Shown here one piece after another: positions 13,782-43,359 of a stretch of DNA of 64,000 nt. Below the pieces are notes generated by a model. The model had not been told where the DNA came from and made no database searches. It was given only the letters and a program-made list of their open reading frames with translations. Numbering within the stretch: position 1 is the stretch's first letter; each line of letters begins with the position of its first letter. The DNA lies in the NCBI GenBank assembly GCA_964608675.1, contig CAZSOZ010000005.1, positions 1-64,000 of the forward strand. Reading direction: 5' to 3'. This stretch comes from an uncultured archaeon. GTDB lineage: Archaea > Iainarchaeota > Iainarchaeia > Iainarchaeales > 1-14-0-10-31-34. The translations under genes were made by a program, and so were the position numbers.

Positions 13782-14219
13782 TTAAACCTTTGTTTTTTTT
13801 GTTTTTTTCATTCCTGGAATTTCTATTTCAGAGTAATCAACTCTTATTTTGTTTTCTCTTAAAGCTTTTCTTGAAGCATAAACTTTCAGAAATTCAGCCA
13901 TTTCTTTTTTTTCTTTTTTTTGCCATTCAGGTTTTTCTACTAATTCATTTACAACTGAACTGATTTTTCTTCCGTTTACTGCTTGAATTATTTCTCCTGG
14001 ATTTTTTCCTGTTTCATTCATTATTTCTTCTAATACAGAATTAAGTTTATTTATTTCAACTATTTTTTCCAGATTTTCTTCTATTTTTCTGTCTATTCCT
14101 GTTCCTAATGAAGCCAGAAATTCCATTACACTTTTTGGATCAGTTTTTTCTGTTACCTTTAATTTTTTTACTGCAATCCATCCTTTCATGTTTGCTATAA
14201 ACTGAATTACTTCTTCCAT
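13782..14219 (-). CDS. conserved archaeal protein (DUF2666-like)
   Basis: IQFIA..KGW.AVKKL.V....P..V.EFLAS pattern. Confidence 0.55.
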   Translation of the reverse strand: MEEVIQFIANMKGWIAVKKLKVTEKTDPKSVMEFLASLGTGIDRKIEENLEKIVEINKLNSVLEEIMNETGKNPGEIIQAVNGRKISSVVNELVEKPEWQKKEKKEMAEFLKVYASRKALRENKIRVDYSEIEIPGMKKTKKTKV

Positions 14220-14305
14220 TCAATCACCTGACAAAAATAAGTTTGTTTTAATATAAATAGTTTTTCTTTAAAAATTGAAGAAAAAAAATTTAAAAAGAAA
14301 AAGTA

Positions 14306-19633: not shown

Positions 19634-19720
19634 TCACTAAATAATGCGTATCGCACTTAGTTAAAAACTAATTAAAAGTATACTCTAAAATTTATTTTTT
19701 AATACGATTTTTTTGTTTTT

Positions 19721-21678: not shown

Positions 21679-21853
21679 TTTTTTTTGTAAATTTTGTTTT
21701 TTTTTAATTAACGAAATCCCTCTATTTTTTTAATGTTGATTTAGGGTTTGAGTGAAATCTACAGTGCCAAAAATTATGTGCTTTGGTTTCTAATCTGTGG
21801 TTTTTGGATGCTTTCTTGTAAATAAGAATTAATTAACTTGAAATTTTTTTTTA

Positions 21854-23565: not shown

Positions 23566-23582
23566 TTTATTTACCTTTTTAT

Positions 23583-23762: not shown

Positions 23763-24348
23763 TTTTTTGTCTCCCCTGCTTTTTTTTGAAATTTAAAATA
23801 CACCCTTTATTTAAGTAATCATTATGGCTTATTAAACCACAATACTTTTTTTCAAAACAAAAACCATTGTTTTCTATTTCTCGTATAATGTCTTTTTCAC
23901 ACATGTTTTTCAGGTTTTTTAGAGGCTGATCTAATTTGTTGTGTTTTGGATACAAAGAAAACAAGCCGTTTTCTTGCAAAACACGATGAATTTCTTTGTA
24001 TAATTTTTTCCTGTTTTCAATTAAATGCAGGACATCGTAAACCAAGGCAACATCAACAGAATCATTTTTCAATTCAATTTTTGTATTGCCATTAGATTTT
24101 ATTATTGAAATATTCGTTAATTCCTGTTTTGCTTTCTTTGCTTTTAATTCTTTTAATGGTTCATTGATTTTATCTAAAGCAAAAACTTTTCCTTTGCTTC
24201 CGACAATTTTTGATAGAGGAACAGAATAATGCCCTGTTCTTGCCCCAAAATCAAGGACTTTTTGTTTTGGCTTGATTCCAATTCTTTTTAGGAATTCAAT
24301 TCCTTTTGTTTTTTCCCATTCAGTCATTTCTTTATTCGTGTTTAACAC
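23746..24348 (-). CDS. class I SAM-dependent methyltransferase
   Basis: VLDFGARTG, VFALD, SVDVA..YDVLH. Confidence 0.8.
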   Translation of the reverse strand: MLNTNKEMTEWEKTKGIEFLKRIGIKPKQKVLDFGARTGHYSVPLSKIVGSKGKVFALDKINEPLKELKAKKAKQELTNISIIKSNGNTKIELKNDSVDVALVYDVLHLIENRKKLYKEIHRVLQENGLFSLYPKHNKLDQPLKNLKNMCEKDIIREIENNGFCFEKKYCGLISHNDYLNKGCILNFKKKQGRQKNEKKN

Positions 24349-24418
24349 CTTTTAAAACATATAATGTAGCGTTTTTTTTTTATTGTTTGAAACAAAAATT
24401 TTGTTGCCTCCTTTAAAT

Positions 24419-25186
24419 TTATATTTCAGGTCGCCTGAAAAGGGTTTCCTTTAAATCCAAGACTTCAACTGATGGCTTTTTTATTTCATAAATTGAAATT
24501 GCATTCAATTCTTTGAATTCTTTTTTAATTGAAACCAATTCTTTTTCTGTTAATGGATTCACTGGAGAGCGCCTTAAAGGCGTGTCAATTTGAATTTCAT
24601 CAGGTTCAATTTCCTTTGCAATATAAAAAATTTCTTGTGCGTTATTCTTATTTTTTTCAATGAACATACATTGTAATGCAAATTTTTTTCCTGTAAATTC
24701 TTTTCTCATTTTTTTAATGCCTTCAAGGATTTTCTTGAATTCAATTTCTTTTGCAGGCTTGTTTATTTCTTCAAAGAGTTCTTTGTTTGGTGCATCAATT
24801 TTTGCTACAATGACATCAAGTTTGTTCAGGGCTTTTTTCACTTCCTTCAAATAAAACATTGAGGAATTTGTCAGGATTCCCACAGGCAAATCAGTTAATT
24901 CTCTTGCAGTGTCAATTAATTCGCTTAAATTTTTTGCAAGAGTTGGTTCCCCGCTTCCTGAAAAAGTTATGATATCTGCTTTGGCTTTCTTTAAGCTTTC
25001 CTTTAATTCTTTTTCAAGTTCAAAGTTTTCCACAAAGTTTTTTTGCTCAAAACTTTTATTTTGTGTTTTTCCCAGCTGACAGTAAACGCAGTCAAAACTG
25101 CATGTTTTGTTTTTCCTGCAAACAGGGTCAATTCCAAGGCTTCTTCCAAGCCTTTTTGAAGGAACAGGCCCGTAAACTATTTTCAT
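24419..25186 (-). CDS. radical SAM protein (COG0731-like)
   Basis: YGPVPSKRLGRSLGID, CSFDCVYCQLG, SGSGEPTL. Confidence 0.85.
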   Translation of the reverse strand: MKIVYGPVPSKRLGRSLGIDPVCRKNKTCSFDCVYCQLGKTQNKSFEQKNFVENFELEKELKESLKKAKADIITFSGSGEPTLAKNLSELIDTARELTDLPVGILTNSSMFYLKEVKKALNKLDVIVAKIDAPNKELFEEINKPAKEIEFKKILEGIKKMRKEFTGKKFALQCMFIEKNKNNAQEIFYIAKEIEPDEIQIDTPLRRSPVNPLTEKELVSIKKEFKELNAISIYEIKKPSVEVLDLKETLFRRPEI

Positions 25187-25203
25187 TTTAATTCTCCTTT
25201 AGT

Positions 25204-25578
25204 TTATTCATGTTTGTCTTCTTTTTTTATTCCATATCCTTTTCCATTTCCTGGCAGGCAAATATTTTTTTCTGTTTTAATTTTTCCTTCAATAAAATCT
25301 TTTAAAACTGTTTTGATATTGCCTGAAACCCCCCAAATTAATTTTATTTCATATTCTTCAAAGAGTTTTTGTGCTTTCCGACCAACCCCTCCAACAACCA
25401 TTATGCTAATGCCTTTTTCATGAAAAAATTTTGGCAAAAATCCAGTGAAATGCCCTGGATTTTCTATTACTTCTTTTTTTATTACTTTTCCTTTTTCAAT
25501 TTCAAGTATAGTAAATTGAGGGCATCTTCCAAAATGCTCTGCTACTTTTCCAGAATCATTTGAAATTGCTATTTTCAT
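25204..25578 (-). CDS. NifB/NifX-family protein
   Basis: MKIAI...VAEHFGRCP.F, GG.G..A. Confidence 0.85.
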   Translation of the reverse strand: MKIAISNDSGKVAEHFGRCPQFTILEIEKGKVIKKEVIENPGHFTGFLPKFFHEKGISIMVVGGVGRKAQKLFEEYEIKLIWGVSGNIKTVLKDFIEGKIKTEKNICLPGNGKGYGIKKEDKHE

Positions 25579-25599
25579 TTCAATCTCCTTTTTTTTTAA

Positions 25600-25989
25600 T
25601 TAAATTTTTTTGTTTGCAGTTAACCCAAAATGGCCTGTGGCTGAATTAATATTGGTTTCTTTTAGTTTTCCTTCACTGAATTGTTGTATTGCATCTTCCA
25701 CGCTTAATTCAGAAACCTGGTAAACTTTTATTTTGCTTTCATGTAAAACCCTAAAAGCATTTGGCCCGATATTTCCTGAAATAACTGCTTTTATTCCTTG
25801 GTTTGCAATTGTTTGTGCTGCTGCAATTCCTGCTCCCATTGCACCATCTTTTGCTTTATTTTCTATGAATTCCTTTTTTTTAATTTTTTTTCCTTTAACT
25901 TCAATTATAAGGAAGCCAGGGCATCTCCCAAAAACAAAGTTAACTTTTTGTTTTAAATCATTTGATGCTACAGTAACAGCTATTTTCAT
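25600..25989 (-). CDS. NifB/NifX-family protein
   Basis: FGRCPGF, GAGIAAAQ, GNIGPNAF. Confidence 0.85.
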   Translation of the reverse strand: MKIAVTVASNDLKQKVNFVFGRCPGFLIIEVKGKKIKKKEFIENKAKDGAMGAGIAAAQTIANQGIKAVISGNIGPNAFRVLHESKIKVYQVSELSVEDAIQQFSEGKLKETNINSATGHFGLTANKKI

Positions 25990-26240
25990 TCAGTTTCCTC
26001 CTCTTCCATTTCTTTTTTTAATGCAATTCCTTGTCCTTTGTATCCAATATAAATTAAGGGAACAGAAAAAACAATCAGCAACGAAGCAAGGGTATTTTGC
26101 CAAACAATTATTCCAATGCATAAAACCATTATTGGAACAACATATCTTCTGTAAACGCATTCTTTTAATGTCCTTGTATAAACAAAAAAAATTGAAAAAA
26201 CGAATATTACAAAACTAATTAAATTAATTGTTTCTTCCAT
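25986..26240 (-). CDS. small membrane protein
   Basis: Three hydrophobic segments; translationally coupled within the operon. Confidence 0.55.
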   Translation of the reverse strand: MEETINLISFVIFVFSIFFVYTRTLKECVYRRYVVPIMVLCIGIIVWQNTLASLLIVFSVPLIYIGYKGQGIALKKEMEEEETE

Positions 26241-26265
26241 TTAATTCCTCTTTAATACTTTTTTT

Positions 26266-26421
26266 TTATTCTCTAGTCAGGGGAGAGCCGCATTTTGGGC
26301 ATTTCCTGCTAGTGCAAGGCAACCCTATATTGTGTGGTACTTTGTTTCCGCAATAAGTGCAAACACAGTTTCCGCCAGGACCTAATGCTGAGCCTCCCAT
26401 TCTTCCTCTTCCATTCGGCAT
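26266..26421 (-). CDS. 51-aa Cys-rich zinc-ribbon protein (missing from the ORF track)
   Basis: MPNGRGRMGGSALGPGGNCVCTYCGNKVPHNIGLPCTSRKCPKCGSPLTRE*, SD GGAGGT; resembles the C-terminus of 38036..38443. Confidence 0.75.
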   Translation of the reverse strand: MPNGRGRMGGSALGPGGNCVCTYCGNKVPHNIGLPCTSRKCPKCGSPLTRE

Positions 26422-26451
26422 TTTTTTTACCTCCTAATCAACAACCTCTAA

Positions 26452-26467
26452 ATGAATTTATATTCAT
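26452..26467. promoter_or_regulatory. operator ATGAAT-N4-ATTCAT
   Basis: Just downstream of TATA box TTTAAATA (minus strand); twin at 37707-37722. Confidence 0.6.
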
Positions 26468-26537
26468 AATATATTTAAACTTTGCTTTAATTTCTGGGCA
26501 GTTTTTCTCTGAATAAATTATTCTTAGGAAGATTTTT

Positions 26538-26559
26538 AAAGTTAGCTAAACCTAACTTT
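26538..26559. promoter_or_regulatory. DtxR/MntR-like operator upstream of feoA
   Basis: AAAGTTAG-CTAAAC-CTAACTTT perfect 8-bp inverted repeat next to the TATA box. Confidence 0.6.
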
Positions 26560-26579
26560 TTACAGTTTTAATTTAATTT

Positions 26580-26834
26580 TTGTTGATTGTAATGCCTAAA
26601 ACGTTTTTTTCTTTGCTTATTTTGTCTTCTGAAAAGAAGGGGTTAATTGTCTTTTTAGATGGAGGTTTTGGCTTTCAGCAAAAACTTGCTTCTTTAAACA
26701 TCAGGGTTGGAAAAACAGTCACTAAAATAACTTCCCAGCCTTTTTCTGGTCCTGTAGTTATTTTGGTTGACAACACCGAAATAAGTTTGGGAAGAAAAAT
26801 TGCTTCCAGGATTTTTGTGGAGGAACTCGAATGA
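26580..26834 (+). CDS. feoA: ferrous iron transport protein A
   Basis: KLASLNIRVG...GPVVI.VDN.EISLGRKIA..I.VE; overlaps feoB. Confidence 0.85.
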   Translation: MLIVMPKTFFSLLILSSEKKGLIVFLDGGFGFQQKLASLNIRVGKTVTKITSQPFSGPVVILVDNTEISLGRKIASRIFVEELE

Positions 26835-28525
26835 AACTGCTTTTAATGGGCAACCCAAACGTAGGCAAAAGCACTTTTTTTTCAAGGTTAACTGGAATAA
26901 ATGTAATGATTTCAAATTATTCTGGGACAACAATTGAATTAAAGAAAGGAAAAATGAAGTTTAATAATAAATTAATTGATGTTATTGATGTTCCTGGAAT
27001 TAATACTTTAGAGCCTTTATGTAAAGCAGAAGAAGTTGCTGTTAAAATGCTTAAAGAAGGAGACTTAATAATTAATGTAGTTGATGCAACTAATTTAGAG
27101 CGAAGTTTGTATTTGACTTTTCAGTTAATGGAAAAAAACATTCCTATTGTTGTGGCTTTAAATTTTTGGAATGAAACCAAACATAAAGGAATTGAAATTA
27201 ATATAAAAAAACTTGAAGAACTTTTAGGCATTCCTGTAATCCCAACTGTTGCTTTAACCGGAGAAGGAATAAAAGAAGTTGTTTTTGAATTAAAAAAGAA
27301 ACCTTTGCCTCTAAAAAAACATTCAGAAGAAAAATGGATTGGAGTAGGCAAAATTGTTAAAGACACTCAAAAAATCAAGAATAAAGAGCATTCTTTTTTG
27401 GACAGGCTTGAAGATTTAAGCATTAAACCTTTAACTGGAATTCCTTTGGCTTTCTTGATTTTATTTTTTTCTTTTTATTTGGTTTGGTTTATTGGGGAAA
27501 CAATTATTTATTTTATTTTTGGTCCTTTGTTTGAATTTTATTTTCCTTTTCTTGTTTCTTTAAGTAATTTTTTGGGTCCAGGTTTTTTTCACGATATTTT
27601 AATTGGTTCTTTAATTAATGGTAAAATTGATTTTGTGCAGTCAATGGGTTTGCTTTCTACCGGATTGTTTGTTCCAATTGCAATGGTTTTGCCTTATGTT
27701 TTTTCTTTTTATTTTGTTTTAGGTTTTTTGGAGGATAGCGGTTATTTACCTAGACTTGCAACTTTAATTGATAATTTAATGCATAGATTTGGAATGCATG
27801 GCTTGGCTGTGATTCCGATGCTTTTGGGTTTAGGTTGTAATGTTCCGGGGGCATTAGCTGTAAGAATTTTGGAGACAAAAAGGCAGAGGTTTATTGCTGC
27901 AACTTTGATGGCTATTTCTGTTCCTTGCATGGCCCAAATTGCAATGATTTTTGGGTTGCTTGGTTCTTTTGGAGTTAAAGGTTTGATTATTGTTTTTGGA
28001 ACTCTTTTTATTGTTTGGATTACATTAGGGTTTTTTCTTAATAAAGTTATGAAAGGGTTGACTCCTGAAACTTTTATGGAAATTCCGCCTTATAGAATGC
28101 CTTATTTGAATTCTTTAATTAAAAAATTGTGGATGAGACTAAAAAATTTTTTAACTGAAGCAATTCCCTTTGTTTTTTTGGGTGTTTTAATAATAAATTT
28201 TTTGTTTGTTTTTGGAGTAATTGATTTTATAAGCAGAATTGCTTCTCCTTTGGTTGTCGGGGTTTTAGGTCTTCCAAAAGAAGCAGTTATTTCTCTTGTT
28301 ATTGGTTTTTTAAGGAAAGACATGGCAATAGGATTATTGTTGCCTTTGAATTTAACTTTAAAGCAATTAATTATTTCAAGTGTTGTATTAACAATGTATT
28401 TTCCTTGTGTTGCAACTTTTGTTGTTTTATTTAAAGAGCTTGGATTAAAGGATTTAATTAAATCAACTTTGTTAATGATTTTTTTATCTTTTTTGGCGGG
28501 CGGAATCCTTAACTTAATTCTTTAA
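26831..28525 (+). CDS. feoB: ferrous iron transport protein B
   Basis: GNPNVGKS, NY.GTT, DVPG, LEDSGYLPR, LGCNVP, YFPCVAT. Confidence 0.93.
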   Translation: MKLLLMGNPNVGKSTFFSRLTGINVMISNYSGTTIELKKGKMKFNNKLIDVIDVPGINTLEPLCKAEEVAVKMLKEGDLIINVVDATNLERSLYLTFQLMEKNIPIVVALNFWNETKHKGIEINIKKLEELLGIPVIPTVALTGEGIKEVVFELKKKPLPLKKHSEEKWIGVGKIVKDTQKIKNKEHSFLDRLEDLSIKPLTGIPLAFLILFFSFYLVWFIGETIIYFIFGPLFEFYFPFLVSLSNFLGPGFFHDILIGSLINGKIDFVQSMGLLSTGLFVPIAMVLPYVFSFYFVLGFLEDSGYLPRLATLIDNLMHRFGMHGLAVIPMLLGLGCNVPGALAVRILETKRQRFIAATLMAISVPCMAQIAMIFGLLGSFGVKGLIIVFGTLFIVWITLGFFLNKVMKGLTPETFMEIPPYRMPYLNSLIKKLWMRLKNFLTEAIPFVFLGVLIINFLFVFGVIDFISRIASPLVVGVLGLPKEAVISLVIGFLRKDMAIGLLLPLNLTLKQLIISSVVLTMYFPCVATFVVLFKELGLKDLIKSTLLMIFLSFLAGGILNLIL

Positions 28526-28824
28526 TGCATAAAAAACCAGCTTTTATTTTTTTTTATTTCAATTAAATTATGTTTATTTAATCAAACAAATTCCACTAAT
28601 TTTTAATGAGTGGTTTAATTTTTATGGGGAATTTGTAACATCAAAAATCATTCATGCCACCGGTCTCTGTTCAGTGGTTTTTGACTTTTTTGTTTTTCTA
28701 AAAAAATAAGAAAAACTGAATTAATTTACGAAAGCTTTCAGGGTAATTCAAAAATTTGTCTTGTTTTCCTGAAAATTTGTTTGTTGGGCAGTGCATTCTG
28801 TTAACAATGTCTGGCTTAAAGCTT

Positions 28825-29631
28825 TTAATTAGCTGAAAATTTTGACAGCAAAACAGATGCCATGTAAATAAAAGAGATTATTAAAACTATTATTGGTCCT
28901 GTAGAAAAATTAAGGTAATATGAAACGAATAATCCTGTAATTGTTGCAGTCAGTGTTATTGCAGTTGAAGTTATCATGATTTTTTTTATGGTTTTGTGAA
29001 AAAGTTGTGCGCTTGCTGCAGGAATTGTCAGAATTGCAATCATCAAGACTATTCCTACAACCCTTATTGTTGCAATAATTGTTAATGCAATTAAACCGAA
29101 TAATATTATGTTAATTAAAGTGGTTGGAGTGTTCCTTGTTTCAGAGTATTCTTCATCAAAGGTTACTGAAAGAAATGAATTGAACATTAAAAAGACTATT
29201 GCAAGTATGACTGCATCTAATGCAAGTATCATTAACAAGTCTGCTTCTGAAACAAGCAGTATGTTTCCAAATAAATAAGTAAATAAATCTGTTGCATATC
29301 CTGGAGTAAGAAAAATAAAAACCAGTCCTGTTGCCATTCCTGTGGCCCATAAAAAGCTGAGTATTGTGTCCAGCCTGTTTTCTGTGCTTTTTTTAAGAAA
29401 AGCAATGATGAATGCTGAAAGCAAACTAAATACAATTCCTCCTGCAAGAGGATTAAAATTAAGATAATAGCTTATTCCTAAACCACCGAATGCCGTGTGA
29501 GCAATGCTTCCTGAAATCAGTGACATTCTTTTTACTACAATGTATGTTCCTATTATTCCTGAAGCCAGTGAAGCCAGCACTGCAATAATTAATGCGTTCT
29601 GGAAAAACTGGTATTGAAGTATTTCAAGCAA
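28825..29631 (-). CDS. znuB: Zn/Mn ABC transporter permease
   Basis: IAHTAFGG, YLFGNIL, VVGIVL. Confidence 0.85.
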   Translation of the reverse strand: MLEILQYQFFQNALIIAVLASLASGIIGTYIVVKRMSLISGSIAHTAFGGLGISYYLNFNPLAGGIVFSLLSAFIIAFLKKSTENRLDTILSFLWATGMATGLVFIFLTPGYATDLFTYLFGNILLVSEADLLMILALDAVILAIVFLMFNSFLSVTFDEEYSETRNTPTTLINIILFGLIALTIIATIRVVGIVLMIAILTIPAASAQLFHKTIKKIMITSTAITLTATITGLFVSYYLNFSTGPIIVLIISFIYMASVLLSKFSAN

Positions 29632-30328
29632 TGCACATCTCCTTCATTTTAAGTGAACTGGTTTTATGGTACTTTATTGTGTTTGTGTTGCATTTGTTGA
29701 TGCAGACAACTTCTTTGGCGTATTTTGAAAGCATTTCAAGATCGTGGTCAACAATCACAATAGCTATTTTTTTGTTTAATTCTTTTAAAATTTTATAGAA
29801 TTCTTCTTGGATGTGAATGTCAAGGTTTGACATTGGTTCGTCCAGCAAAAGAGCTTTTGGTTCATTGGCTACTGCTCTTGCAACAAAAACTCTTTGTTTT
29901 TCTCCTCCTGAAAGCTCGCATAGTTTATTGTTTCTTAAATGCCAAATGCCAAGGCTTTTTAGGGTTTTTTCAGCCATTTTTCTGTCTTCTTCAGAGTATT
30001 GCTTGAACAGTTTTTTTCCAACTCTACTCAAAAGCACAATCTCTTGGGCAGTTATTGGAAAATTAAAGTCAATGTCTTTGAATTGAGAGAGATAACCAAT
30101 TTGTTCTCTTCCTTTTTTTGGGGTTTTCCCAAACACTTTGATTTTGCCTTTTTTTGGTTTCAGCAATCCCAGAATCAGTTTCAGCAAAGTAGTTTTGCCT
30201 CCTCCGTTGGGGCCAACAACCCCAAGAAAATCTTTTTTGTAAATTGAAAGATTAATGTTTTTTAAGAAATCTTCTTTTGAATAACTAAAGCATACATCAT
30301 TTAATTTGATTATTTCCTTTCTGTTCAT
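29624..30328 (-). CDS. znuC: Zn/Mn ABC transporter ATPase
   Basis: GPNGGGKT, LSGGEKQR, LLLDEP. Confidence 0.88.
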   Translation of the reverse strand: MNRKEIIKLNDVCFSYSKEDFLKNINLSIYKKDFLGVVGPNGGGKTTLLKLILGLLKPKKGKIKVFGKTPKKGREQIGYLSQFKDIDFNFPITAQEIVLLSRVGKKLFKQYSEEDRKMAEKTLKSLGIWHLRNNKLCELSGGEKQRVFVARAVANEPKALLLDEPMSNLDIHIQEEFYKILKELNKKIAIVIVDHDLEMLSKYAKEVVCINKCNTNTIKYHKTSSLKMKEMCIA

Positions 30329-30340
30329 AGTACTCAGAAA

Positions 30341-31216
30341 CTATTTTTTTAAGTTTTCAGTGATAGTTATTGCTACATTTCTTAGATTGCTTATGTAATT
30401 CTCAGAAAGAGGGTCAATTGAAACAACAACAGCATCAATTTCTTCGGCGATTGATTCAGCTATATCTTTATTGAATTGTGATTGAACGAATATTACTTTA
30501 ATGTTTTCTTTTTCAGCTTCATCAATTAGTTCCTGCAATTGCTCTGCTGTCGGTTCTTTTCCGGATTGCTCTATAGCTACTTGTTTAATATCATATTCAT
30601 CAGCAAAGTAACCCCAAGCTGGATGGAATACCATGAGCTTGTCTGTTTTCAGTTCCTTGAATTTGGATTCAATTTCATCATGCAGTTCATCAAGCTGTTT
30701 TTTGAAATTCTCTGCATTGCTTTTGTATGCGCCAGAATTTTGTGGATCTTTTTGTGACAATGATTCTGCAATCACATCAACCTGCTTTTTGGCCTGTAAA
30801 GGTGAAAGCCAGATATGCGGGTCAATTCCTTCCTGTTTACCAAAATACCTGAGTTTTACATTAATTGAAGTGTCCACTATCAACATATTTTTATTCAATT
30901 CAGCAAATTTATTGGTATGAGACTTTTCAAAAGCAATATGGCCTACCCTAAAATAAATGTCAGCGTTTTCAACATTAGCCAGATCACTTGGCTTTGGTTC
31001 ATATGTTGCAGGGCTTGCCCCTAAAGGAATTAATTCCTTTACATTAACGTGTTCTCCTCCAACTGCTTTTACAAAAGCTTTTTGAGGTAAAATGCTTACA
31101 ATCACATTTAATTTTTTGCTTGATTCTTTTTCAGGGTAATTAATGCAGCCAGAAAACAAAAATAATATAATAACTAATGCAAAAAACAACTTGCTGGTTT
31201 TCATTTTTTTTTTCAC
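30341..31216 (-). CDS. znuA: Zn/Mn ABC transporter substrate-binding lipoprotein
   Basis: Lipobox FSGC, YEPKPSD, DPHIWLSP, FHPAWGYFA. Confidence 0.88.
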   Translation of the reverse strand: MKKKMKTSKLFFALVIILFLFSGCINYPEKESSKKLNVIVSILPQKAFVKAVGGEHVNVKELIPLGASPATYEPKPSDLANVENADIYFRVGHIAFEKSHTNKFAELNKNMLIVDTSINVKLRYFGKQEGIDPHIWLSPLQAKKQVDVIAESLSQKDPQNSGAYKSNAENFKKQLDELHDEIESKFKELKTDKLMVFHPAWGYFADEYDIKQVAIEQSGKEPTAEQLQELIDEAEKENIKVIFVQSQFNKDIAESIAEEIDAVVVSIDPLSENYISNLRNVAITITENLKK

Positions 31217-31250
31217 CTTAATATTTTATAAACAATGCAGTATAAATATG

Positions 31251-31273
31251 TTATTGATTGTAATTATCAATAA
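31251..31273. promoter_or_regulatory. Fur/Zur-type operator
   Basis: TTATTGAT-TGTAATT-ATCAATAA palindrome between divergent znuA and zur. Confidence 0.65.
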
Positions 31274-31282
31274 GGTTGTGTT

Positions 31283-31672
31283 GTGGCAAAAAAAAGAAGC
31301 ACCAAACAAAAAGAATTTCTTCAAAAAAAATTAGAGGAAATTGATTCTTTTTTTAGTGCAGAAGACTTGCTTGCATTAGCCGGCAAAGAAAAAAAAAGAA
31401 TTGGGGTTGCCACTGTTTACCGGTTTCTCAATGAACTGAAAAAACAAAACCTTTTGTATTCTTATAAGTGCAACAGGAAAACAGTTTTTTCCAGGCAAAA
31501 TAACAGTCACTGCCATTTTGTTTGTGAAAGCACTGGCAAAATAACTCATTTCAATATTGATTCTCTGGATTTCCTTAAAGACAAAATTCCTGGTTCAATT
31601 AAAAGCTTTCAGCTTGAAGTCAGGGGCGTCAGCAACGGAAAACCTAAAACCTGCTGTAAAAAAACCAATTAA
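31283..31672 (+). CDS. Fur-family regulator (Zur-like)
   Basis: SAED...IGVATVYRFL, HCHFVCE..GKI. Confidence 0.82.
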   Translation: MAKKRSTKQKEFLQKKLEEIDSFFSAEDLLALAGKEKKRIGVATVYRFLNELKKQNLLYSYKCNRKTVFSRQNNSHCHFVCESTGKITHFNIDSLDFLKDKIPGSIKSFQLEVRGVSNGKPKTCCKKTN

Positions 31673-31707
31673 AAAAGACAATCAGAAAAACCGGACTTAA
31701 TATGCCG

Positions 31708-31719
31708 AAGCCTCTAGGG
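31708..31719. repeat. att-like copy of the tRNA-Thr(TGT) 3' end, AAGCCTCTAGGG
   Basis: Identical at 32680-32691 and 36080-36091; 11-bp core equals 36731-36741. Confidence 0.8.
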
Positions 31720-31873
31720 CGAGAAAAACAAATTATTCAAAGCCTGACATGCTTTTTGATTTACTATAAAATTATAGTATATAAAACTAGTTAAAAACAG
31801 GTCGAGTAACCAAAAAAAGGAAATTAATTTTAATAGAATGAATTAATTACTTTTTTAGTTTTTTATAGTTTAA

Positions 31874-32608
31874 TTATCCGATGTATCCTGCAGGTGCTAA
31901 ACCACCATGACTTAAGAAAGTACTTATAATTGAAAAAAACAATTTCCATAAAACATAAAAAGCGCCAAAAATTATAATCCATTGCACTAAATTTGTTATT
32001 AGAGCTATTACGGCACTTTTAATTAAGCTTTGATTATGTGCTTCTCTTGTAGACAAAATTGACCAGTATAAATTAATTAGTGATAGTAAAATTAGTAAAT
32101 AAGTTATTGGGTTATAAATTATTGAATCAAGTGAAGAAATATTGCCTTCTGTGGGATAACTTGCAAACCATAATACTGCTAAGTCATGCGTGAATGAATT
32201 AGCGGCAATGGTAACTAATATTGTTGATATAAGCCATAAAACAGGATATAATGAAGTTAAATAAAATTGTTGTGTAAAAGTTGCTTTGCCGCCTAAAAAT
32301 TTCATTATATAATGTGCTATTAAATTAGAAAGAATTACTGCAAAAAACAAAAGAATACATAAAGGGATAATAAGCAAAACTTCAATAACAACTGCAACAA
32401 ATATTGCATTACCCATACTTGAGATGCCATGAGCTAAGATTCTTTCAATAACTATATAGCAAAAACTGATTAAGGGTGACAATAAAAGAAAAAATATTGC
32501 ATAGTTAACCAATGCTTTCTTTAATGAAGCTTTTGGTTTCTCTTCAGTAAAAGTTTTCTTTGGATGAATTAATGCATTAATCCATATTCTGATTCTTTCC
32601 GTAACCAT
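31874..32608 (-). CDS. Yip1-domain membrane protein
   Basis: LIHPKKTF.EE, KFLGGKATF, REAH.QS..KS; multiple TMs. Confidence 0.7.
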   Translation of the reverse strand: MVTERIRIWINALIHPKKTFTEEKPKASLKKALVNYAIFFLLLSPLISFCYIVIERILAHGISSMGNAIFVAVVIEVLLIIPLCILLFFAVILSNLIAHYIMKFLGGKATFTQQFYLTSLYPVLWLISTILVTIAANSFTHDLAVLWFASYPTEGNISSLDSIIYNPITYLLILLSLINLYWSILSTREAHNQSLIKSAVIALITNLVQWIIIFGAFYVLWKLFFSIISTFLSHGGLAPAGYIG

Positions 32609-32679
32609 GTGTTTTATTGTAGTTTTAAGTAATATTTATTATTTTGCTAAAGCCTTTGTTATATGAATTTCAACGACCT

Positions 32680-32691
32680 AAGCCTCTAGGG
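32680..32691. repeat. att-like copy of the tRNA-Thr(TGT) 3' end
   Basis: AAGCCTCTAGGG. Confidence 0.8.
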
Positions 32692-32757
32692 AAACCAATC
32701 CCCAAAGTGTGAAGCCTACACAACATTTTTCATAACTTATATTTTAATTTTTCGGTT

Positions 32758-35466
32758 TTAAATAATCTCTATTTCATCATCGTATTCTTCTTCATTTTCA
32801 TCAGAGTCTGTTGTTTCTTCTACTTTTCTTGCTTTTTTATTGTAATGTGGGCAAAATGCTGCAAAAGCACATTCTCTGACTTGTTTGCAATTATTTGGAT
32901 TAGGCGTAAATTCTTTATTTTTTATTTTAGGTATTATATTTTGTATATCAAAAGTTATTTGTTCAGTTAAATCAAAACATATTTTTTTCCCGCCTTTTCC
33001 AAAAAAATAAATAATTCCTTTTTTAATTGAAGGGTCTTTTATTGCCCAAGAATATAACTTAATTTGTCTTTTGGCTTGGTCTTCAGTAAAATGATTGTGG
33101 GCTCCTGACTTAAATTCAACAATTGTTTTTTCTCCATTTTCGTCTGTTAAAACCAAATCAATTCTTCCTCTTATTAAACAATCTGATATCGTAGTTTGAA
33201 AAGGCATTTCAGGGTTTATTTTTTGATTTTTCAACTCTTTTTCAAAAGATTTGAAGTATTTTTCTAAAGCGTTTTTATAAATATAAGGCCTTAAAGGAGC
33301 AAACTTTGGTAATTTTTCTTCAATTAGCTCATCTAAATCAACTGTTAATTTATCTGAAAAAAACTGTTCGCCTTTTAAATTTGAGATTTTTAAGTTTAAA
33401 TGATATAATAAAATGTGAAATACTGTTCCATAAGTTAATGAAGAATAATTATTTCTTGGAATAGCAAAATTATTGTAAAAACGCAACTTATATGAATAAG
33501 GACACTTCAAAAATTCTTCTATTTTATGATGAGACAATTCAAGAATTTCTTGTTTTTTGGCGTTTGGGCGTATAGAAAGGTCTTTTTGGTTTTCATAAAG
33601 AGTTACCAAATTCGCAGCATTAGGATCTTCCACAAGAATTAAGGCTGTATTTTTAAGGATTTTTTTTATGTCTTCCGGCATGTAATTTATTTTAGTATAA
33701 GAAAGAATTAATTCGTCTTTAGCACGAGTAATGCCAACATATTTTGCTCTTAAAAAATCTTCATTTGGATCATACTGCTCAAACAAATCATGTAAAGGAT
33801 CTGATCTTTTGCTTGGCATAAAATTTTTTTGTATTTCTGGGATTATTACTATTGGAAACTCTAATCCTTTTGATCTATGAAAAGTTAATAGTTTAACAGA
33901 ATCATCTAAAAATTCAATTGGTTGTTCTGTATCAAGAAAATCTTTCTTTGTTTGAGATATGTATTCAAATATTTTTTCAGAAGGAGTATCAAACATTGTT
34001 AGATTTGTTTCTAAAATTTTTGAAAATTTTGCAAGATTGAAAATTACTTTTTCTTCATTATCTCTAATTTTTTTTTTGAGGTATTTTGAATGACGAATTA
34101 TTTCATAAAATGCTGATAAAGGATTTCTATTGTATAAAATAGCTTCTGTCGGTAATTTTAATTCTAACAATGTGTTTTCGATTTCTTTTTCTTCTTTCCA
34201 TTCCTTAAATACATTAAGTATCTCGTTCATATAATCTATTTGTAAAAGACCTCCGTCTCCAATAACTTCAAAAGGAATGTTAGCTTCTTCTAATGCCTTT
34301 ACAAACTCTTGCGAGTTGTATTTCACGCTTTTAAAAAAAATGCCTATATTGGAGTAATTCTGAACAATTTTTTTGCTATGTAAATCTTTAATATATTCGA
34401 TAGTGTTTTTTATTTCTTCATCTTCTGAAAAAAATTTTTTCACTTTTATTTTCACTCCGTCATTAGTTAATTCTCCGTCTTCTTTATCAAAATTTCCAAT
34501 TATTTCTTTTTCTTTTTCAAGATTTAAATATCTGTTGGAAAAAGTGATTATCTTTTTTGTAGAGCGATAATTTTTCCTAAGCATGTATTCTTTTGAATTT
34601 GGAAAAGATTCACAAAACCTATCAAATATTGTGACATCACTTCCTCTAAATCCATAAATGCTTTGGTTTCTGTCGCCAACAACCCAGATTTTTGTTTTTT
34701 CACTTAAAAATAATTTTAGTAAATCTTCTTGAATTCTATTAACATCTTGGTATTCATCAGCAAAAATATAATCAAACTTATTTTTCGCAAATTCACTTAA
34801 TTTTGGGTTGTTTTTGATTTCTTTTATTACTGTGTGTATTAGATCTCCAAAATCAAAGCTTCTTTGTTCAAGCAACATGTTGCAGTATTTAATGTAAGCT
34901 TCTTCTAATGGAAAATCTTTTTCTTTTAATTCTTCTAAATAATAATTGTCTTTTATCCTCCCAAAAAAATTATTTAGATCTGAGATGTTGGATTGTGTTT
35001 CATTATTTCTAATTGTGTTTGAAAATTTTAATAAAAACAAAAATTGAGAATATTCATCTAATGCTTTAAAACCCTTGTAATCCTTAAAAAATAGAAGATT
35101 TTCTTTTATGAATCTTGCACAAAATCCATGAAAAGTAGAAACATAAAACTTTTTTTCATTGGGAAATCTTGAAATAATCTTACTTAATAGATCTTCAGCA
35201 GCTTTATTAGTATAGGTTATTAGCAAAATTTTATTTGGATTTACTCCGTTACTAACAAGATTAACAACTTTTTCTATTAACAAAGTTGTTTTTCCAGATC
35301 CGGGGCCTGCAGTGATCTTAATGTTATGTTCAGTATCTGATAATATTAACTGTTTTTCTTTGGAAAGTTTCACTTTTATCACACATTCTTTTAGGTAATG
35401 AGAATTTAATACCAATTGTCTTTTTTGTGAGTTTTGTCGTGTTTTTTTTGGTTGTTGAATACCCAT
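32758..35466 (-). CDS. UvrD/PcrA-like SF1 helicase fused to a C-terminal PD-(D/E)xK nuclease (true start likely GTG ~35382)
   Basis: AGPGSGKT, DEYQD, VGD.NQSIYGFRG, TFHRSKGLEF, YVGITRAK, CPY.Y, GRIDL..IVEFKSG, C-terminal Cys cluster. Confidence 0.88.
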   Translation of the reverse strand: MGIQQPKKTRQNSQKRQLVLNSHYLKECVIKVKLSKEKQLILSDTEHNIKITAGPGSGKTTLLIEKVVNLVSNGVNPNKILLITYTNKAAEDLLSKIISRFPNEKKFYVSTFHGFCARFIKENLLFFKDYKGFKALDEYSQFLFLLKFSNTIRNNETQSNISDLNNFFGRIKDNYYLEELKEKDFPLEEAYIKYCNMLLEQRSFDFGDLIHTVIKEIKNNPKLSEFAKNKFDYIFADEYQDVNRIQEDLLKLFLSEKTKIWVVGDRNQSIYGFRGSDVTIFDRFCESFPNSKEYMLRKNYRSTKKIITFSNRYLNLEKEKEIIGNFDKEDGELTNDGVKIKVKKFFSEDEEIKNTIEYIKDLHSKKIVQNYSNIGIFFKSVKYNSQEFVKALEEANIPFEVIGDGGLLQIDYMNEILNVFKEWKEEKEIENTLLELKLPTEAILYNRNPLSAFYEIIRHSKYLKKKIRDNEEKVIFNLAKFSKILETNLTMFDTPSEKIFEYISQTKKDFLDTEQPIEFLDDSVKLLTFHRSKGLEFPIVIIPEIQKNFMPSKRSDPLHDLFEQYDPNEDFLRAKYVGITRAKDELILSYTKINYMPEDIKKILKNTALILVEDPNAANLVTLYENQKDLSIRPNAKKQEILELSHHKIEEFLKCPYSYKLRFYNNFAIPRNNYSSLTYGTVFHILLYHLNLKISNLKGEQFFSDKLTVDLDELIEEKLPKFAPLRPYIYKNALEKYFKSFEKELKNQKINPEMPFQTTISDCLIRGRIDLVLTDENGEKTIVEFKSGAHNHFTEDQAKRQIKLYSWAIKDPSIKKGIIYFFGKGGKKICFDLTEQITFDIQNIIPKIKNKEFTPNPNNCKQVRECAFAAFCPHYNKKARKVEETTDSDENEEEYDDEIEII

Positions 35467-35630
35467 AAATTGCTTGGTCTGTTGTCTGATTTATCTCTGT
35501 TAATATGATGAACTACTTCTCCATCTTCTAAACTTCTTCCTATTCTTTGTTCAGCAGCCCATCTGTGAACAGGTGTTCCGGAATCAGAAAACCGTCTGTA
35601 TCCTTTTTTATCTTTAAACCATTGAGCCAT
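35406..35630 (-). CDS. small HNH endonuclease
   Basis: VHRW.AE...VVHHINRDKSDNRPSNL. Confidence 0.82.
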   Translation of the reverse strand: MAQWFKDKKGYRRFSDSGTPVHRWAAEQRIGRSLEDGEVVHHINRDKSDNRPSNLWVFNNQKKHDKTHKKDNWY

Positions 35631-35646
35631 ATTTTAACCTCCTTAA

Positions 35647-36006
35647 TTACTTCCATTTTAATTTAAATTTCTTTAAATCTTTTCTTTTCATTGCGCATTT
35701 TTTGCACAATAATTCTTTTATGTGAGCGTCTATACTTGTAGGGTTGTCAAAATCAATATCTCCGTTATCTTTTCTGTAATATTTCATAATAGATAAAGAG
35801 TTTGTAAAATGAGGTTCGTTTTCTTTTATTTCTTTATCACACTTATAACAAGTAAGTATTTCTTCTGTATCCTCATAGGCTTTAGATTGAATAATTTCTC
35901 TTAAAAGTCTTGAAGGTTTTTTGCCTTTTTCTTCAGCAAATATAACAAACTTTTTTGCAAGTTCTTTTGGGACTTTAGTGCTAATAACAACAAATTCTTT
36001 TACCAT
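35647..36006 (-). CDS. RHH DNA-binding domain plus zinc finger
   Basis: VISTKVPKEL...SRLLREII; CYKC...CKKC. Confidence 0.6.
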   Translation of the reverse strand: MVKEFVVISTKVPKELAKKFVIFAEEKGKKPSRLLREIIQSKAYEDTEEILTCYKCDKEIKENEPHFTNSLSIMKYYRKDNGDIDFDNPTSIDAHIKELLCKKCAMKRKDLKKFKLKWK

Positions 36007-36079
36007 AATAAAATAAGTAGACCAAAATGAATATAAAAGTATTACTAAAAAGTTGCTAGGGATTTATACTTTGATTATT

Positions 36080-36091
36080 AAGCCTCTAGGG
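36080..36091. repeat. att-like copy of the tRNA-Thr(TGT) 3' end
   Basis: AAGCCTCTAGGG. Confidence 0.8.
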
Positions 36092-36132
36092 TCCTAACAA
36101 CGGTTAGTTTGATATAATAGGGGCTTCTGTTT

Positions 36133-36660
36133 TTAGATTTGGTCTACTAAGTTTCCATATGCAGTGTTATATCCAAATGAAGCCAAACAACAGAATTCTT
36201 TGCAAGAATCAGGACAGCTCATTTTAGAGCTATCGTGGAAAGGAAGCGTCCCTTTTTCTTTAGCTTGACAGGTAATATAAAAGCTTGTGCTGGTTTGTTC
36301 GTTGAATTTTATTGAATCTTTTTTTAATGAATCAGTATATTGCACTGAAGTTATTTCAGGAGAGAAATCAATTTGAATGCATTTTTCTCCTATGTTTAAA
36401 ATGTTTGAAAACTGTTTTGAACTAAAAGTTTGGTCTTTTTGGATTACTATGGTTTTTGTTGCAAAAGTTTTTCCATTTGGGCTCATTGATGCTTTTTTCA
36501 AAGTGTCTTCAATTGATTTTGAATAAGGAGAATTTACTTTTTGATTTCCACACCACCACATTATTTCACAGAAAAAAAAATATCCTCCGATTAATAGTAC
36601 AACTAAAACAATTATTGCACTAATTACAAAACTGGAAAATGCGCTTCCTTTAAATTTCAT
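36133..36660 (-). CDS. membrane-anchored/secreted Cys-containing protein, possible class III (pilin-like) signal
   Basis: MKFKG|SAFSSF followed by a hydrophobic helix. Confidence 0.55.
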   Translation of the reverse strand: MKFKGSAFSSFVISAIIVLVVLLIGGYFFFCEIMWWCGNQKVNSPYSKSIEDTLKKASMSPNGKTFATKTIVIQKDQTFSSKQFSNILNIGEKCIQIDFSPEITSVQYTDSLKKDSIKFNEQTSTSFYITCQAKEKGTLPFHDSSKMSCPDSCKEFCCLASFGYNTAYGNLVDQI

Positions 36661-36730
36661 AAGTTAAATATTGTTTTAACTACTATTTATTTTTTTCCAA
36701 AGCCCCTGTTATCCAAAACTAATCATTTAG

Positions 36731-36998
36731 AGCCTCTAGGGGGATTTGAACCCCCGGCCTACTGATTACTCGGTTCCGCCCGAGTGTGACGGTGCACGCC
36801 GTAAAGGCGTGCTAGCACTGCTTTATGCAGTGCTTCGGCACTCACGCTCGAAAGCGTGACGGTGCAGGACATTCACTTTGTTCAGTCCAGCTGCCAAAGC
36901 ATGACAGCCCTGTCGAGCTGAAAGCGAAGACAGTGCTCCGTGTTAAACCGGCGGAACGGTTTTACAAGTCAGTCGCTCTGCCACTGAGCTATAGAGGC
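36731..36998 (-). tRNA. tRNA-Thr(TGT) with 196-nt intron (36767-36962)
   Basis: GCCTCTA/TAGAGGC acceptor, ACTGA-CT-TGT-A|A-TCAGT, CTTG/CGAG helix with TAA bulge, GGTTCAAATCC. Confidence 0.92.
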
Positions 36999-37044: not shown

Positions 37045-37698
37045 ATGGAATCAATTAAAAGTATTTGCTCTAAATGCACTGAATGCTGTAAAAAATACAA
37101 TATAACTCTGCTTCCAGAAGAAAGCAAAAGAATATCTCAATACATGAATTTAAATGAAAAAGAATTTATTGAAAACTATTGTGATTTACTGCTTCAATTT
37201 TTTCCTTCATTTAAATCAAATAATCCGTTTGTAGTTCATTACACAGAAATCCCAAAAAAATTATACAAAAAATTTCAAGAGCATTCTGAAAAAGATTATT
37301 TCTTTGTTCTCCCAAATATAAGTTTAAAAAAAACAAACAAATGCATTTTTCTTGAAAACGGTTTATGCACAGTACAAGAAGTAAAACCAGAGCAATGCAT
37401 TTTATTTCCTTTTATAATAATCAACGAAGAAACAAAAATAAAAGAAAAATATTTGTTCTGCAAATTATTAAAACAAGGAATTAAAGCAGATGAAAACGCA
37501 AAAGAAAAATCCTTAAACCATTACACAAAAGTAAAAAACTATTTTGAGTTAATAAAAGAAAAAGGCTTTCAGCAAGAATGGAAAGAACTTCCAAAAAAAG
37601 GAGCAATTTTTTTAGAAGAAAAGCAAATTCAAAAAATAACGCAAAAAGACTTCTTAAAACTCATAAACTTATTCAAAGTTTCCGACCAAAACCTTTAA
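37045..37698 (+). CDS. YkgJ/CxxCxxCC family protein
   Basis: CSKCTECC, CIFL..GLC.V...KPEQC.LFPF. Confidence 0.8.
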   Translation: MESIKSICSKCTECCKKYNITLLPEESKRISQYMNLNEKEFIENYCDLLLQFFPSFKSNNPFVVHYTEIPKKLYKKFQEHSEKDYFFVLPNISLKKTNKCIFLENGLCTVQEVKPEQCILFPFIIINEETKIKEKYLFCKLLKQGIKADENAKEKSLNHYTKVKNYFELIKEKGFQQEWKELPKKGAIFLEEKQIQKITQKDFLKLINLFKVSDQNL

Positions 37699-42170: not shown

Positions 42171-42299
42171 GTTTCGCCGTTTGAGCACGATGCACGACAT
42201 AAAGTCGTGCTAGCACCGCTTTACGCTGTGCCTCGTTGCAACCAGCCGAAACTGGTTCAGGACATTTGTTTCACTCAGTCCAGCTGTCTCAAATGGTTG
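42171..42299. repeat. multi-hairpin element in the tRNA-Glu 5' leader, homologous to the tRNA-Thr intron
   Basis: Same four hairpins in the same order as 36794-36895, with compensatory changes. Confidence 0.8.
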
Positions 42300-42346: not shown

Positions 42347-43261
42347 ATGAGATTACCGGCAATGAGCTGCCTAAAAGAACTTATTCAAGAAAAAACAGTT
42401 TTTTCTATGAATTCTTATTTTGATATTAGTTTGTTGAATGATAAATCTGATTCAAAACACACTTCATTACACGCTGAAATAGTCAATCTTACTCAAGAAG
42501 ATATTGATTTGAAAAAGGCATTAAATTTAGGTTATTCTCTTTCTTCAGTTGAAGATTGGATAAAACAAAGACACAGTGTTCCAATAAATGTTTTGAACAA
42601 TATTGATTCTATTTCTCCTCAAGTAAAATTTTTAAATTATAGAGGATCAAAAATAAAAGTAAAACTTCCTGAATTAGATAATAATCTGTTTTACTTTGCA
42701 GGAGTTGTGTTTGGAGATGGTCATGTTAGCGGTGTTATTAGACCAAAAGGCTATCGTAGTTATCGAGTTAAAATAGAGAAAAGCAAATCTGATTTTTCAC
42801 AGTATTTTATCTCACAACTAATTGAAGAACTGTTTGGTTTTAAACCAAGAATTTATTTCTGGAAAAGAAAAAGTGAATTAGTTAATATTATTGTAAACTC
42901 TAAAGTTGTTTCAAGGATTTTGACAAATGTTTTTGGTTTTTCGTATGGAAAGAAATCAGATAAAGTAATTGATTTTGTTAAACAGTTTCCAGAAGAATTG
43001 CAATTGTATTTCATTACTGGCTTGTTGGATACTGACGGAGGAATTTCAGCAAGCTCTTTTTCTTTTTGTAATTCATCAAAAAAGACAGTTTTGTTTGTAA
43101 AAGATTTTATGGAAAAACAAAATCTTGCCACTAAATTTTATGAACAATCTAAAGAGAACTTTAAATGGTATCAAGTTAGAATTCCATTAAAAGATAAAAA
43201 TAAGTTTCTCAAAACTTTTCCTTTGAAAAATAAAAGAAAGTATGCCGGTGGAGGGATATGA
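42347..43261 (+). CDS. free-standing double-motif LAGLIDADG endonuclease-like protein
   Basis: YFAGVVFGDGHV and FITGLLDTDGGI motifs. Confidence 0.82.
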   Translation: MRLPAMSCLKELIQEKTVFSMNSYFDISLLNDKSDSKHTSLHAEIVNLTQEDIDLKKALNLGYSLSSVEDWIKQRHSVPINVLNNIDSISPQVKFLNYRGSKIKVKLPELDNNLFYFAGVVFGDGHVSGVIRPKGYRSYRVKIEKSKSDFSQYFISQLIEELFGFKPRIYFWKRKSELVNIIVNSKVVSRILTNVFGFSYGKKSDKVIDFVKQFPEELQLYFITGLLDTDGGISASSFSFCNSSKKTVLFVKDFMEKQNLATKFYEQSKENFKWYQVRIPLKDKNKFLKTFPLKNKRKYAGGGI

Positions 43262-43359
43262 GCCCTCGACCTTCAGATTATGAGTTTCGCCTCCAAAACA
43301 ATTCATAAATTAAAAAATCGCTTGGAACTGACGCTCTAACCAGGCTGAGCTACACCGGC
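43243..43359 (-). tRNA. elongator tRNA-Met(CAT) with 42-nt non-canonical intron (43286-43327) at position 30/31
   Basis: GCCGGTG/CACCGGC acceptor; TCAG|A-CT-CAT-AA-TCTGA; strict BHB GAG-CGTC-AG|T-TCCAA / TTGGA-GGCG-AA|A-CTC. Confidence 0.88.

Follow-up and report, generated by a model that had tools for sequence, protein, structure and literature searches.

How did three small groups of genes come to stand in a row behind a tRNA gene, with a copy of the last 11 nt of that same gene at the border of each? The question is raised by a stretch of 64,000 nt from an uncultured archaeon of the order Iainarchaeales (GenBank assembly GCA_964608675.1, contig CAZSOZ010000005.1, positions 1 to 64,000; this whole stretch is referred to here as the window), in which the 11-mer AGCCTCTAGGG begins at positions 31709, 32681, 36081 and 36731 of the plus strand (n = 4). 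Its reverse complement forms the 3' end of a minus-strand tRNA-Thr(UGU) gene, the final 11 nt of which comprise 3 nt of the T stem, the 7-nt acceptor strand and the discriminator. On the sequence evidence assembled here, units that are flanked by att sites and lack an integrase are stacked at this locus, and they would have arisen by site-specific recombination at tRNA-Thr. We further propose, tentatively, that the units may well be non-autonomous mini-elements that rely on an integrase supplied in trans, similar to the one that lies behind the same tRNA end in a metagenome contig (L021).

The tRNA-Thr 3' end itself provides the first copy of the 11-nt identity block (core0, 36731..36741, minus strand). 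The three internal copies, also on the minus strand, are exact, intergenic and in one orientation: core1 at 36081..36091, core2 at 32681..32691, and core3 at 31709..31719, with which the array ends distally, 37 nt beyond the stop codon of a convergent fur gene. Contigs of sequencing run X2 span all three internal junctions and reproduce them without a difference (0 differences at core1). No match to the 11-mer was found in 100 dinucleotide-preserving shuffles of the window. The spacings between successive copies, from 31709 to 36731, are 972, 3400 and 650 nt. A preliminary description of this DNA, made from the sequence alone, had reported the 11-mer at these four positions, exactly between genes, and three co-oriented units of 0.65, 3.4 and 0.97 kb; count, coordinates and gene directions all bear this out.

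We then counted the 11-mer beyond the window. The assembly to which the window belongs (G000; 1,206,741 bases in 53 contigs, the window's own contig being C5) contains five copies, of which one is on the 2.6-kb contig C25. This contig is most likely a binning contaminant because its GC content is 57%, compared with 29-32% on the main contigs C1-C9; the genuine copies (4/4) therefore all lie within 5 kb. The preliminary description had proposed this genome-wide count as a check that could go against it, and the count left four genuine copies, all at this locus. (Contigs C10 and C16-C52 are likewise short, with 40-68% GC in a 31% GC genome, and look like binning contaminants.) Among 151 genomes of the order, 148 have no copy or a single one, and more than one copy was seen only in G000 (5) and in two members of the same genus, G002 (2) and G004 (2, both at contig ends). 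None of the other tRNA tails of G000 is repeated nearby, and no repeats were found at the tRNA-Thr(UGU) loci of other genera (four loci, with 1.5 kb of flank each).

Comparison of the same locus across the genus, a check also proposed in the preliminary description, showed that the units differ among relatives, with breakpoints at the 11-mer and empty sites in two genomes. The comparison covered G000 and five relatives (G001-G005) with ~75-80% DNA identity in shared genes. A CxxCxxCC-domain gene on the 5' side of the tRNA gene (37045..37698, plus strand, in the window) is the conserved neighbor in all of the relatives (5/5). On the 3' side, G005 and G003 have an empty site, in which tRNA-Thr is followed directly by a DUF2666 gene, referred to here as gene A, and a PAP2 gene. 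G002 has a four-unit array of its own, with exact cores at 9230 and 11998 and cores with one mismatch each at 9495 and 10295; one of its units is a 254-nt stretch without genes, another two hold a 217-aa and a 484-aa gene, respectively, and the remaining one holds a rhodanese gene and an ORF in the opposite direction. The 484-aa unit is shared by G001 and G002 (79.6% identity over 1147 nt), and the homology ends 2 nt past the core, beyond which the sequences are unrelated. The distal cores adjoining gene A are decayed in G001 (8/11) and G002 (5/11), and there is none in the window or in G004. In both G001 and G004 a contig break falls on the 3' end of tRNA-Thr or a few bases from it. In all, nine distinct units can be counted (three in the window, four in G002, one more in G001 and one in G004), and no integrase or integrase fragment was detected in any of the nine by tblastn with five integrases at E<=10, which returned only noise at E>=1.

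The cores are not the only sequences that recur. The sequences beside them, called here the P' arm at the tRNA-proximal end of a unit and the P arm at its distal end, form families that keep their register with the core across units with unrelated genes. The P' arm of unit 1 (36673-36730) is common to unit 3 and to contig C43 of G004, and unit 1 and the G004 insert have the same first 28 nt after the tRNA. The P' arm of unit 3 (32622-32663) resembles that of unit 1, with a 41-nt stretch in common that begins 18 nt after the core. At the other end of unit 3, the P arm (31720-31825, ~105 nt) is 83% identical to the end of unit 2 of G002, the genes of the two units being unrelated, and its last 35 nt are also common to unit 1 of G002. 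We judged the arm scores against a null distribution from random genome segments, of which the 99th percentile is 25. Arm pairs scored between 33 and 76: unit 1 scored 44 against unit 3 and 49 against G004 for the P' arm, and unit 3 scored 76 and 38 against units 2 and 1 of G002, respectively, for the P arm. On the low-GC contigs of G000, the P' motif ATAACARRGGCTTT is present at just two places, each 17 nt after a core; as both are in P' arms, it is not a general promoter element.

Between these arms lie genes that have little in common. Unit 1 (36092..36730, minus strand, 639 nt) holds one gene (36133-36660, minus strand) for a Cys-rich protein of 175 aa with an N-terminal hydrophobic segment and no family match; its homologs in relatives, 46-49% identical, lie away from any tRNA. 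Unit 2 (32692..36080, minus strand, 3389 nt) holds three, all on the minus strand: a gene for a 119-aa protein without a family match (35647-36006), a 74-aa HNH_3 endonuclease (35406-35630), and a 902-aa helicase-nuclease (32758-35466) in which a UvrD helicase is fused to a PD-(D/E)XK/Cas4-like nuclease. The helicase-nuclease has a patchy distribution: it has no match in the five same-genus genomes, and two other families of the order have copies of it, at 58% and 49% identity. Its homologs in G063 and G069 are not within comparable arrays, nor do homologs of the HNH gene in relatives adjoin tRNAs. Read at its longest, the helicase-nuclease ORF overlaps the HNH ORF by 61 nt (35406-35466); since its helicase domain begins at residue 36, its true start may lie further in. 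Unit 3 (31720..32680, minus strand, 961 nt) holds one gene (31874-32608, minus strand) for a multi-pass membrane protein of 244 aa with a weak Yip1 match (19 bits, against a cutoff of 28.6). Of the gene labels first given to these units, the UvrD helicase, PD-(D/E)XK nuclease and HNH assignments thus hold and Yip1 stays below its cutoff, while neither "RHH-Zn" nor "pilin-like" found support in Pfam, NCBIfam, PHROGs, PADLOC or the PDB. All five genes of the window units read in the direction of the tRNA, as do 11 of 12 unit ORFs when the arrays of relatives are included. In every window unit, 70-74 nt separate the start of the first gene from the core that precedes it. Base composition does not distinguish the units (26-31% GC, compared with ~31%).

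Which enzyme might have recombined these units? Contig C5 has no PF00589 match, and a Pfam scan of 67 ORFs of the window, the one scan in which DDE transposase families were covered, found no integrase or transposase family; with the tblastn result, this upholds the original observation that units and window are free of both. Across G000 there are three PF00589 matches. Two are on the contaminant contigs C36 and C52 (both of these integrases are of bacterial type, and the one on C36 lies beside a bacterial tRNA), and the third, on another contig, is XerA, which scores 281 bits on the archaeal XerA model, has Pyrococcus abyssi XerA as its best solved relative, scores 210 bits on the integron-integrase model (cutoff, 265), and is kept in every member of the genus. 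No resolvase or serine recombinase, Cas1, Y1 transposase or TnpB was found in G000. The genome-wide search for tyrosine recombinases, likewise suggested at the outset, thus left XerA alone on the low-GC contigs, and the candidate enzyme is therefore inferred from another organism.

That organism is represented by L021, the single locus recovered in a metagenome scan with the neighbor protein. It has the same 11-mer, a neighbor gene 59% identical and a tRNA intron 85-95% identical to those of the window, and, starting 62 nt after tRNA-Thr, a gene for a tyrosine integrase of 382 aa that has a zinc ribbon at its C terminus. The integrase family of L021 is present in 67 of the 151 genomes of the order (E<=1e-25). 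In G110 (L064, C26), tRNA-Thr(TGT) is followed by an integrase of this family, and 14 nt of the tRNA end are repeated at a distance of 6.25 kb; a third integrase lies behind tRNA-Tyr. In G130 (L063, C9:15000-34999), tRNA-Met is followed by a family integrase, with a 14-nt repeat 9.2 kb away and, directly after it, a second integrase. Both loci are clear-cut cases of the classical kind of element in this order. Short tRNA-end repeats, tandem reuse of a site and an integrase for this very site are therefore documented in the lineage. Classical elements, in which a tRNA gene and an integrase gene are separated by ~60 nt, occur within the genus as well, in G003 (at tRNA-Cys and on C5) and G001 (at tRNA-Leu). 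In five classical elements the integrase starts 59-68 nt after the core, compared with the 70-74 nt for the genes of the window units. Because a tyrosine integrase follows directly on the identical tRNA end in a relative, capture by a recombinase acting in trans, as proposed in the preliminary description, is a reasonable idea; the integron-like label that came with it, taken strictly, is not supported.

Together, these data suggest a model in which the 3' end of tRNA-Thr(UGU) serves as attB and three non-autonomous mini integrative elements have inserted there in tandem. Each unit would consist of a P' arm of ~60-70 nt on the tRNA-proximal side, which would double as the promoter region, one to three cargo genes reading in the direction of the tRNA, a distal P arm of up to ~105 nt, and the core CCCTAGAGGCT. 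The likely enzyme is a tyrosine integrase of the family (380-450 aa, zinc ribbon at the C terminus) that is found right behind tRNA genes in the order; it would have acted in trans, or else have been lost. Such an integrase would recombine a circular unit (P-core-P') with the tRNA end, so that the core copy of the unit would rebuild the tRNA gene and the old end would be displaced outward as a direct repeat. Repeated rounds would leave the newest unit next to the tRNA, which would set the order of insertion, and the units may be able to move even now. The crossover would fall in the right part of the core, because the variants of G002 at core positions 1 and 6 are both on the P side.

Several observations weigh against this model. 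The sample comprises only six genus genomes and one metagenome contig, and the low-GC contigs of G000 (a genome 94% complete) carry no integrase except XerA. The arm adjoining the core of L021 has no similarity to any arm of the window. A search of 185,579 species genomes with an arm-plus-core pattern found only G002, and scans of viral contigs with two DNA patterns, three unit proteins and the L021 integrase gave no matches. In low-depth contigs from four runs of one study (~2-7x, too shallow for rare forms), there was no circle, empty-site or core joint. Inverted repeats near the unit ends are significant in only two of the six units tested and not in the other four. The array ends against fur at 31709 and not against gene A, with a 17.4-kb block (14272-31708) in between; the border of that block at gene A, within a few bases of the tRNA-end/gene A junction of G005, lacks a core in both the window and G004. 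Finally, the genes of unit 2 and the gene-less 254-nt unit of G002 are equally compatible with debris of larger elements.

This last point leads to the strongest rival, in which each unit is the decayed remnant of a 6-9-kb integrase-bearing element that inserted at tRNA-Thr and then shed its integrase and most other genes through deletions, was never moved in trans and is immobile now; we regard this as possible, though rather doubtful. Decay has precedents. The classical elements of the order all have their integrase beside the core; integrated archaeal elements without an integrase have presumably lost it after integration, according to passages in PMC8371274; and cis-mobilizable elements (CIMEs) are by definition, in the text of PMC5704250 that treats them, decayed elements that retain attL and attR. 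The set of regulator, HNH and helicase-nuclease genes in unit 2 resembles a module of a mobile element and is patchily distributed, unit 1 of G002 is a gene-less stub of 254 nt, and distal cores do deteriorate, as in G001 (8/11) and G002 (5/11). Against this, integrase traces are present in none of the nine units, both arms are retained, in register, across units with unrelated cargo, and all three internal cores of the window are perfect. The position of the cargo argues in the same direction: it starts at close to the distance from the core at which integrases start, which random deletions would not repeat. Movement in trans by an L021-like integrase remains the reading that we prefer.

An integron-like platform was also considered, in which the resident XerA, or an unrecognized enzyme, would capture cassettes at the tRNA as the equivalent of attI, including by a hijacking of Xer as in pdif modules or integrative mobile elements exploiting Xer recombination (IMEXs). 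XerA is indeed the sole recombinase on the low-GC contigs and is kept throughout the genus, the units are small and co-oriented and carry a conserved site irrespective of cargo, and integrons do exist in Archaea (PMC9668308). However, G005 and G003 have XerA and yet an empty site, and the junctions do not resemble the sites that either system would need. By the criterion of two inverted ~11-bp arms around a ~6-bp spacer (as given in part of PMC2958812), none of 11 junctions has a dif-like 11-6-11 dyad; the best match 5-7 of 11 positions, compared with a mode of 6 in 2000 random AT-rich flanks, and a Xer/dif route at these junctions was rejected on that basis. Folded as single-stranded DNA, the seven unit ends gave z scores of -1.16, 0.71, -0.11, 1.60, -2.55, 0.01 and 0.30, so that an attC-like hairpin (z<-2 relative to shuffles) is present at only one of seven, and attC-hairpin integron cassettes were likewise rejected. 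Arms at both ends are unlike attC cassettes, and XerA, at 210 bits, is below the level of IntI (265 bits). These same three findings (no IntI, one attC-like fold in seven, arms at both ends) are what tell against the term "integron-like" in its strict sense, and we consider such a platform improbable.

Slightly more improbable still is transposition, in which casposon-like or insertion sequence (IS)-like non-autonomous units with inverted ends would duplicate one preferred 11-bp target. Casposons do target tRNA 3' ends, duplicate their target and stack in tandem (according to passages in PMC6563490), and there are inverted repeats near the ends of two units. In unit 1, the tRNA-proximal copy (36700..36722) lies inside the P' arm and is matched at 19 of 23 positions by an inverted distal copy (36104..36126), a score reached by 1.1% of genome-derived null pairs. 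Unit 2 has imperfect inverted repeats of ~50 nt, set 7-11 nt inward of its two cores, with a score that 3.5% of null pairs reach. These repeats start 7-12 nt inside the cores and do not abut them, and in four of six units they are absent or not significant. Moreover, the integrase-bearing elements of G110 and G130 have inverted matches at the same offsets (13/15 and 10/11; not significant on their own), and the end repeats therefore fit an attP architecture at least as well. Casposon, IS200/IS605 and serine-recombinase routes were rejected, as G000 has no Cas1, Y1 transposase, TnpB or serine recombinase. That the 11-mer is a functional signal reused between genes (a tRNA-like processing site or the binding site of a regulator) and not a recombination scar we consider scarcely credible: all copies are intergenic, in a single orientation and 70-74 nt upstream of the next start codon, and at 36081 the upstream AGCCCCTA can pair with the core as in a minihelix, but that minihelix is no better than shuffles (z = -0.11), the other sites have no complementary acceptor strand, the motif is in no other intergenic region of the genome, and in relatives the 11-mer marks the exact ends of homology between gene sets, as a signal would not. 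Recombination at the tRNA end, most plausibly by an integrase supplied in trans, accounts for the locus better than any of these.

The far side of the array may have a history of its own. The chromosomal flank is formed by the gene for a Fur-family regulator (31283..31672, plus strand), beyond which the 17.4-kb block extends. In the window, gene A and the PAP2 gene are at 12894-14219, 22.5 kb from tRNA-Thr, and homology over gene A and its upstream region (13782..14272, minus strand) ends at ~14272 without a copy of the core. The block between consists of ordinary genes for stress response and metal homeostasis (SOD, Hsp20, PfpI, a DEAD helicase, FeoB, ZnuABC and Fur) and sits exactly at the junction that joins tRNA-Thr to gene A in the relatives, with the distal core at one border and no core at the other. 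From this arrangement, a rearrangement at or near a core likely lies behind the block. Between feoB and znuB, an AT-rich stretch of ~115 nt (28573-28687) has copies 79-91% identical in several places in G001-G004, and may represent either a gene for a small RNA or a short repeat element. Elsewhere in the window, a gene for an ATP-dependent DNA ligase adjoins one for a LigD-type primase-polymerase, as an end-joining pair (6047-7911), and a MazF/PemK toxin gene stands beside an ORF with a Fic/DOC domain (11036-11917).

The tRNA gene that bears attB (36731..36998, minus strand) is itself unusual in that exons at ~36962-36998 and ~36731-36765 are separated by a GC-rich intron of ~196 nt (~36766-36961) at position 37/38. 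It was missed by ARAGORN in default mode and by Rfam; with introns allowed, ARAGORN reported c[36730,36998] and mislabeled it as Tyr. Read directly, the gene is legible and complete, and matches the intron-less 72-nt ortholog of G005, with the anticodon TGT. In a contig of run X4, position 36764 is joined to 36963 with 26 other letters between. The length of the intron thus varies, from ~196 nt in the window to ~155 in G002, ~100 in G003, 26 in the relative in run X4 and 0 in G005. Pieces of it match window positions 42187-42286 and 49409-49453 and many places in G001-G004, and look as if an intron-borne repeat had been spreading. By ARAGORN, introns of 28-180 nt are present in ~17 of the 46 tRNAs called on low-GC contigs in G000; the program mislabels several of them, for example one as "Pyl" and two as "Tyr". 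An ORF of 304 aa with a LAGLIDADG-like domain (42347-43261, plus strand) ends inside or beside an intron-bearing tRNA-Met gene (43243-43359, minus strand).

Tandem islands at tRNA genes and integrase-less remnants are already familiar. What would be new are units of one to three genes that keep both arms, with arms common across cargo and species and cargo in the slot of the integrase. Extended to the genus, the idea is that it keeps a set of miniature elements (0.25-3.4 kb, with modular att arms, a built-in promoter and zero to three cargo genes in the integrase slot) moved in trans by the integrases of co-resident elements, which we think conceivable but rather unlikely as a general statement. 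If the units were moved in trans, they would offer archaea with genomes of ~1 Mb a cheap route of gene exchange, and the 3' end of tRNA-Thr would be a gene-capture array, integron-like in its working and unrelated to integrons: a second and independent answer to what bacteria achieve with integrons, and the integrative-element counterpart of miniature inverted-repeat transposable elements (MITEs). Should they be no more than debris, the locus would be an integration hotspot of the ordinary kind. The idea lends itself to testing: the L021 integrase is available as a candidate, and both the crossover block of 11 nt and the arms are defined.

How does the array compare with known systems? In integrons, the attC site is an imperfect palindrome at the end of the cassette that folds as a hairpin and has a core of the GTTRRRY type. 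Integrons and clusters of attC sites lacking integron integrases (CALINs) share with this array small, co-oriented, mostly single-gene units with a conserved site of their own, the newest being expected at a fixed site. Here, in contrast, there is no IntI, attI or GTTRRRY-type core, hairpins are found at one unit end in seven, each unit has arms on both sides, and a tRNA gene serves as the fixed site. The pdif modules and IMEXs use Xer recombinases, and their sites are dif-like 11-6-11 dyads. They resemble the present units in being modules of one to three genes without a recombinase of their own, with short sites and an enzyme encoded elsewhere, but the junctions here lack a dif-like dyad.

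The elements of archaeal tyrosine recombinases are closer in kind. As described in passages of PMC6563490, they occupy tRNA 3' ends, with att sequences down to 8 bp in Thaumarchaeota and tandem reuse of a site; the smallest such element noted in the parts of PMC6563490 and PMC8371274 that deal with them has four genes, including the integrase. The target, the short att repeats (14 nt in G110 and G130) and the tandem reuse are alike, but whereas those elements span several kilobases and carry an integrase beside att, the window units have a cargo gene in its place. We found no autonomous relative of any unit with the arm and DNA patterns and the unit proteins in viral contigs and species genomes, and no description, in the passages of open-access literature covered, of an archaeal tRNA with integrase-less units of one to three genes that have arms in common.

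Of the cases on record, the ssrA islands of Dehalococcoides come nearest. In the sections of PMC3146451 on these islands, they lie in tandem downstream of the tRNA-like gene, bounded by 20-bp direct repeats of its 3' end; their number varies by strain, and a conserved motif that does not match the RNA gene lies just upstream of the repeat. Sixteen islands have an integration module, with the serine recombinase DsiB, and some are without one and are proposed to be cis-mobilizable (PMC3146451, same sections). Common to both are a row behind an RNA gene, repeats of its 3' end and conserved sequence beside the repeats. The present array differs in being archaeal, in its likely use of a tyrosine integrase, in its 11-nt core, in units of 0.25-3.4 kb with zero to three genes, and in having an integration gene in none of nine units.

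Among streptococcal integrative and conjugative or mobilizable elements, CIMEs are att-flanked, lack an integrase and stand in tandem at the 3' end of the target gene through repeated integration; they are described as decay products that move in cis with a functional neighboring element (both points from passages in PMC5704250). The window units share with them the retained attL and attR and the lack of integration or transfer genes, but differ in having no functional neighbor in the array and conserved arms around unrelated single genes. Conserved arms around unrelated genes suggest, as far as sequence can, that the units are non-autonomous by design. Taken together, these comparisons place the array closer to a tandem accretion of integrase-less, att-flanked elements, in the manner of CIMEs, than to an integron.

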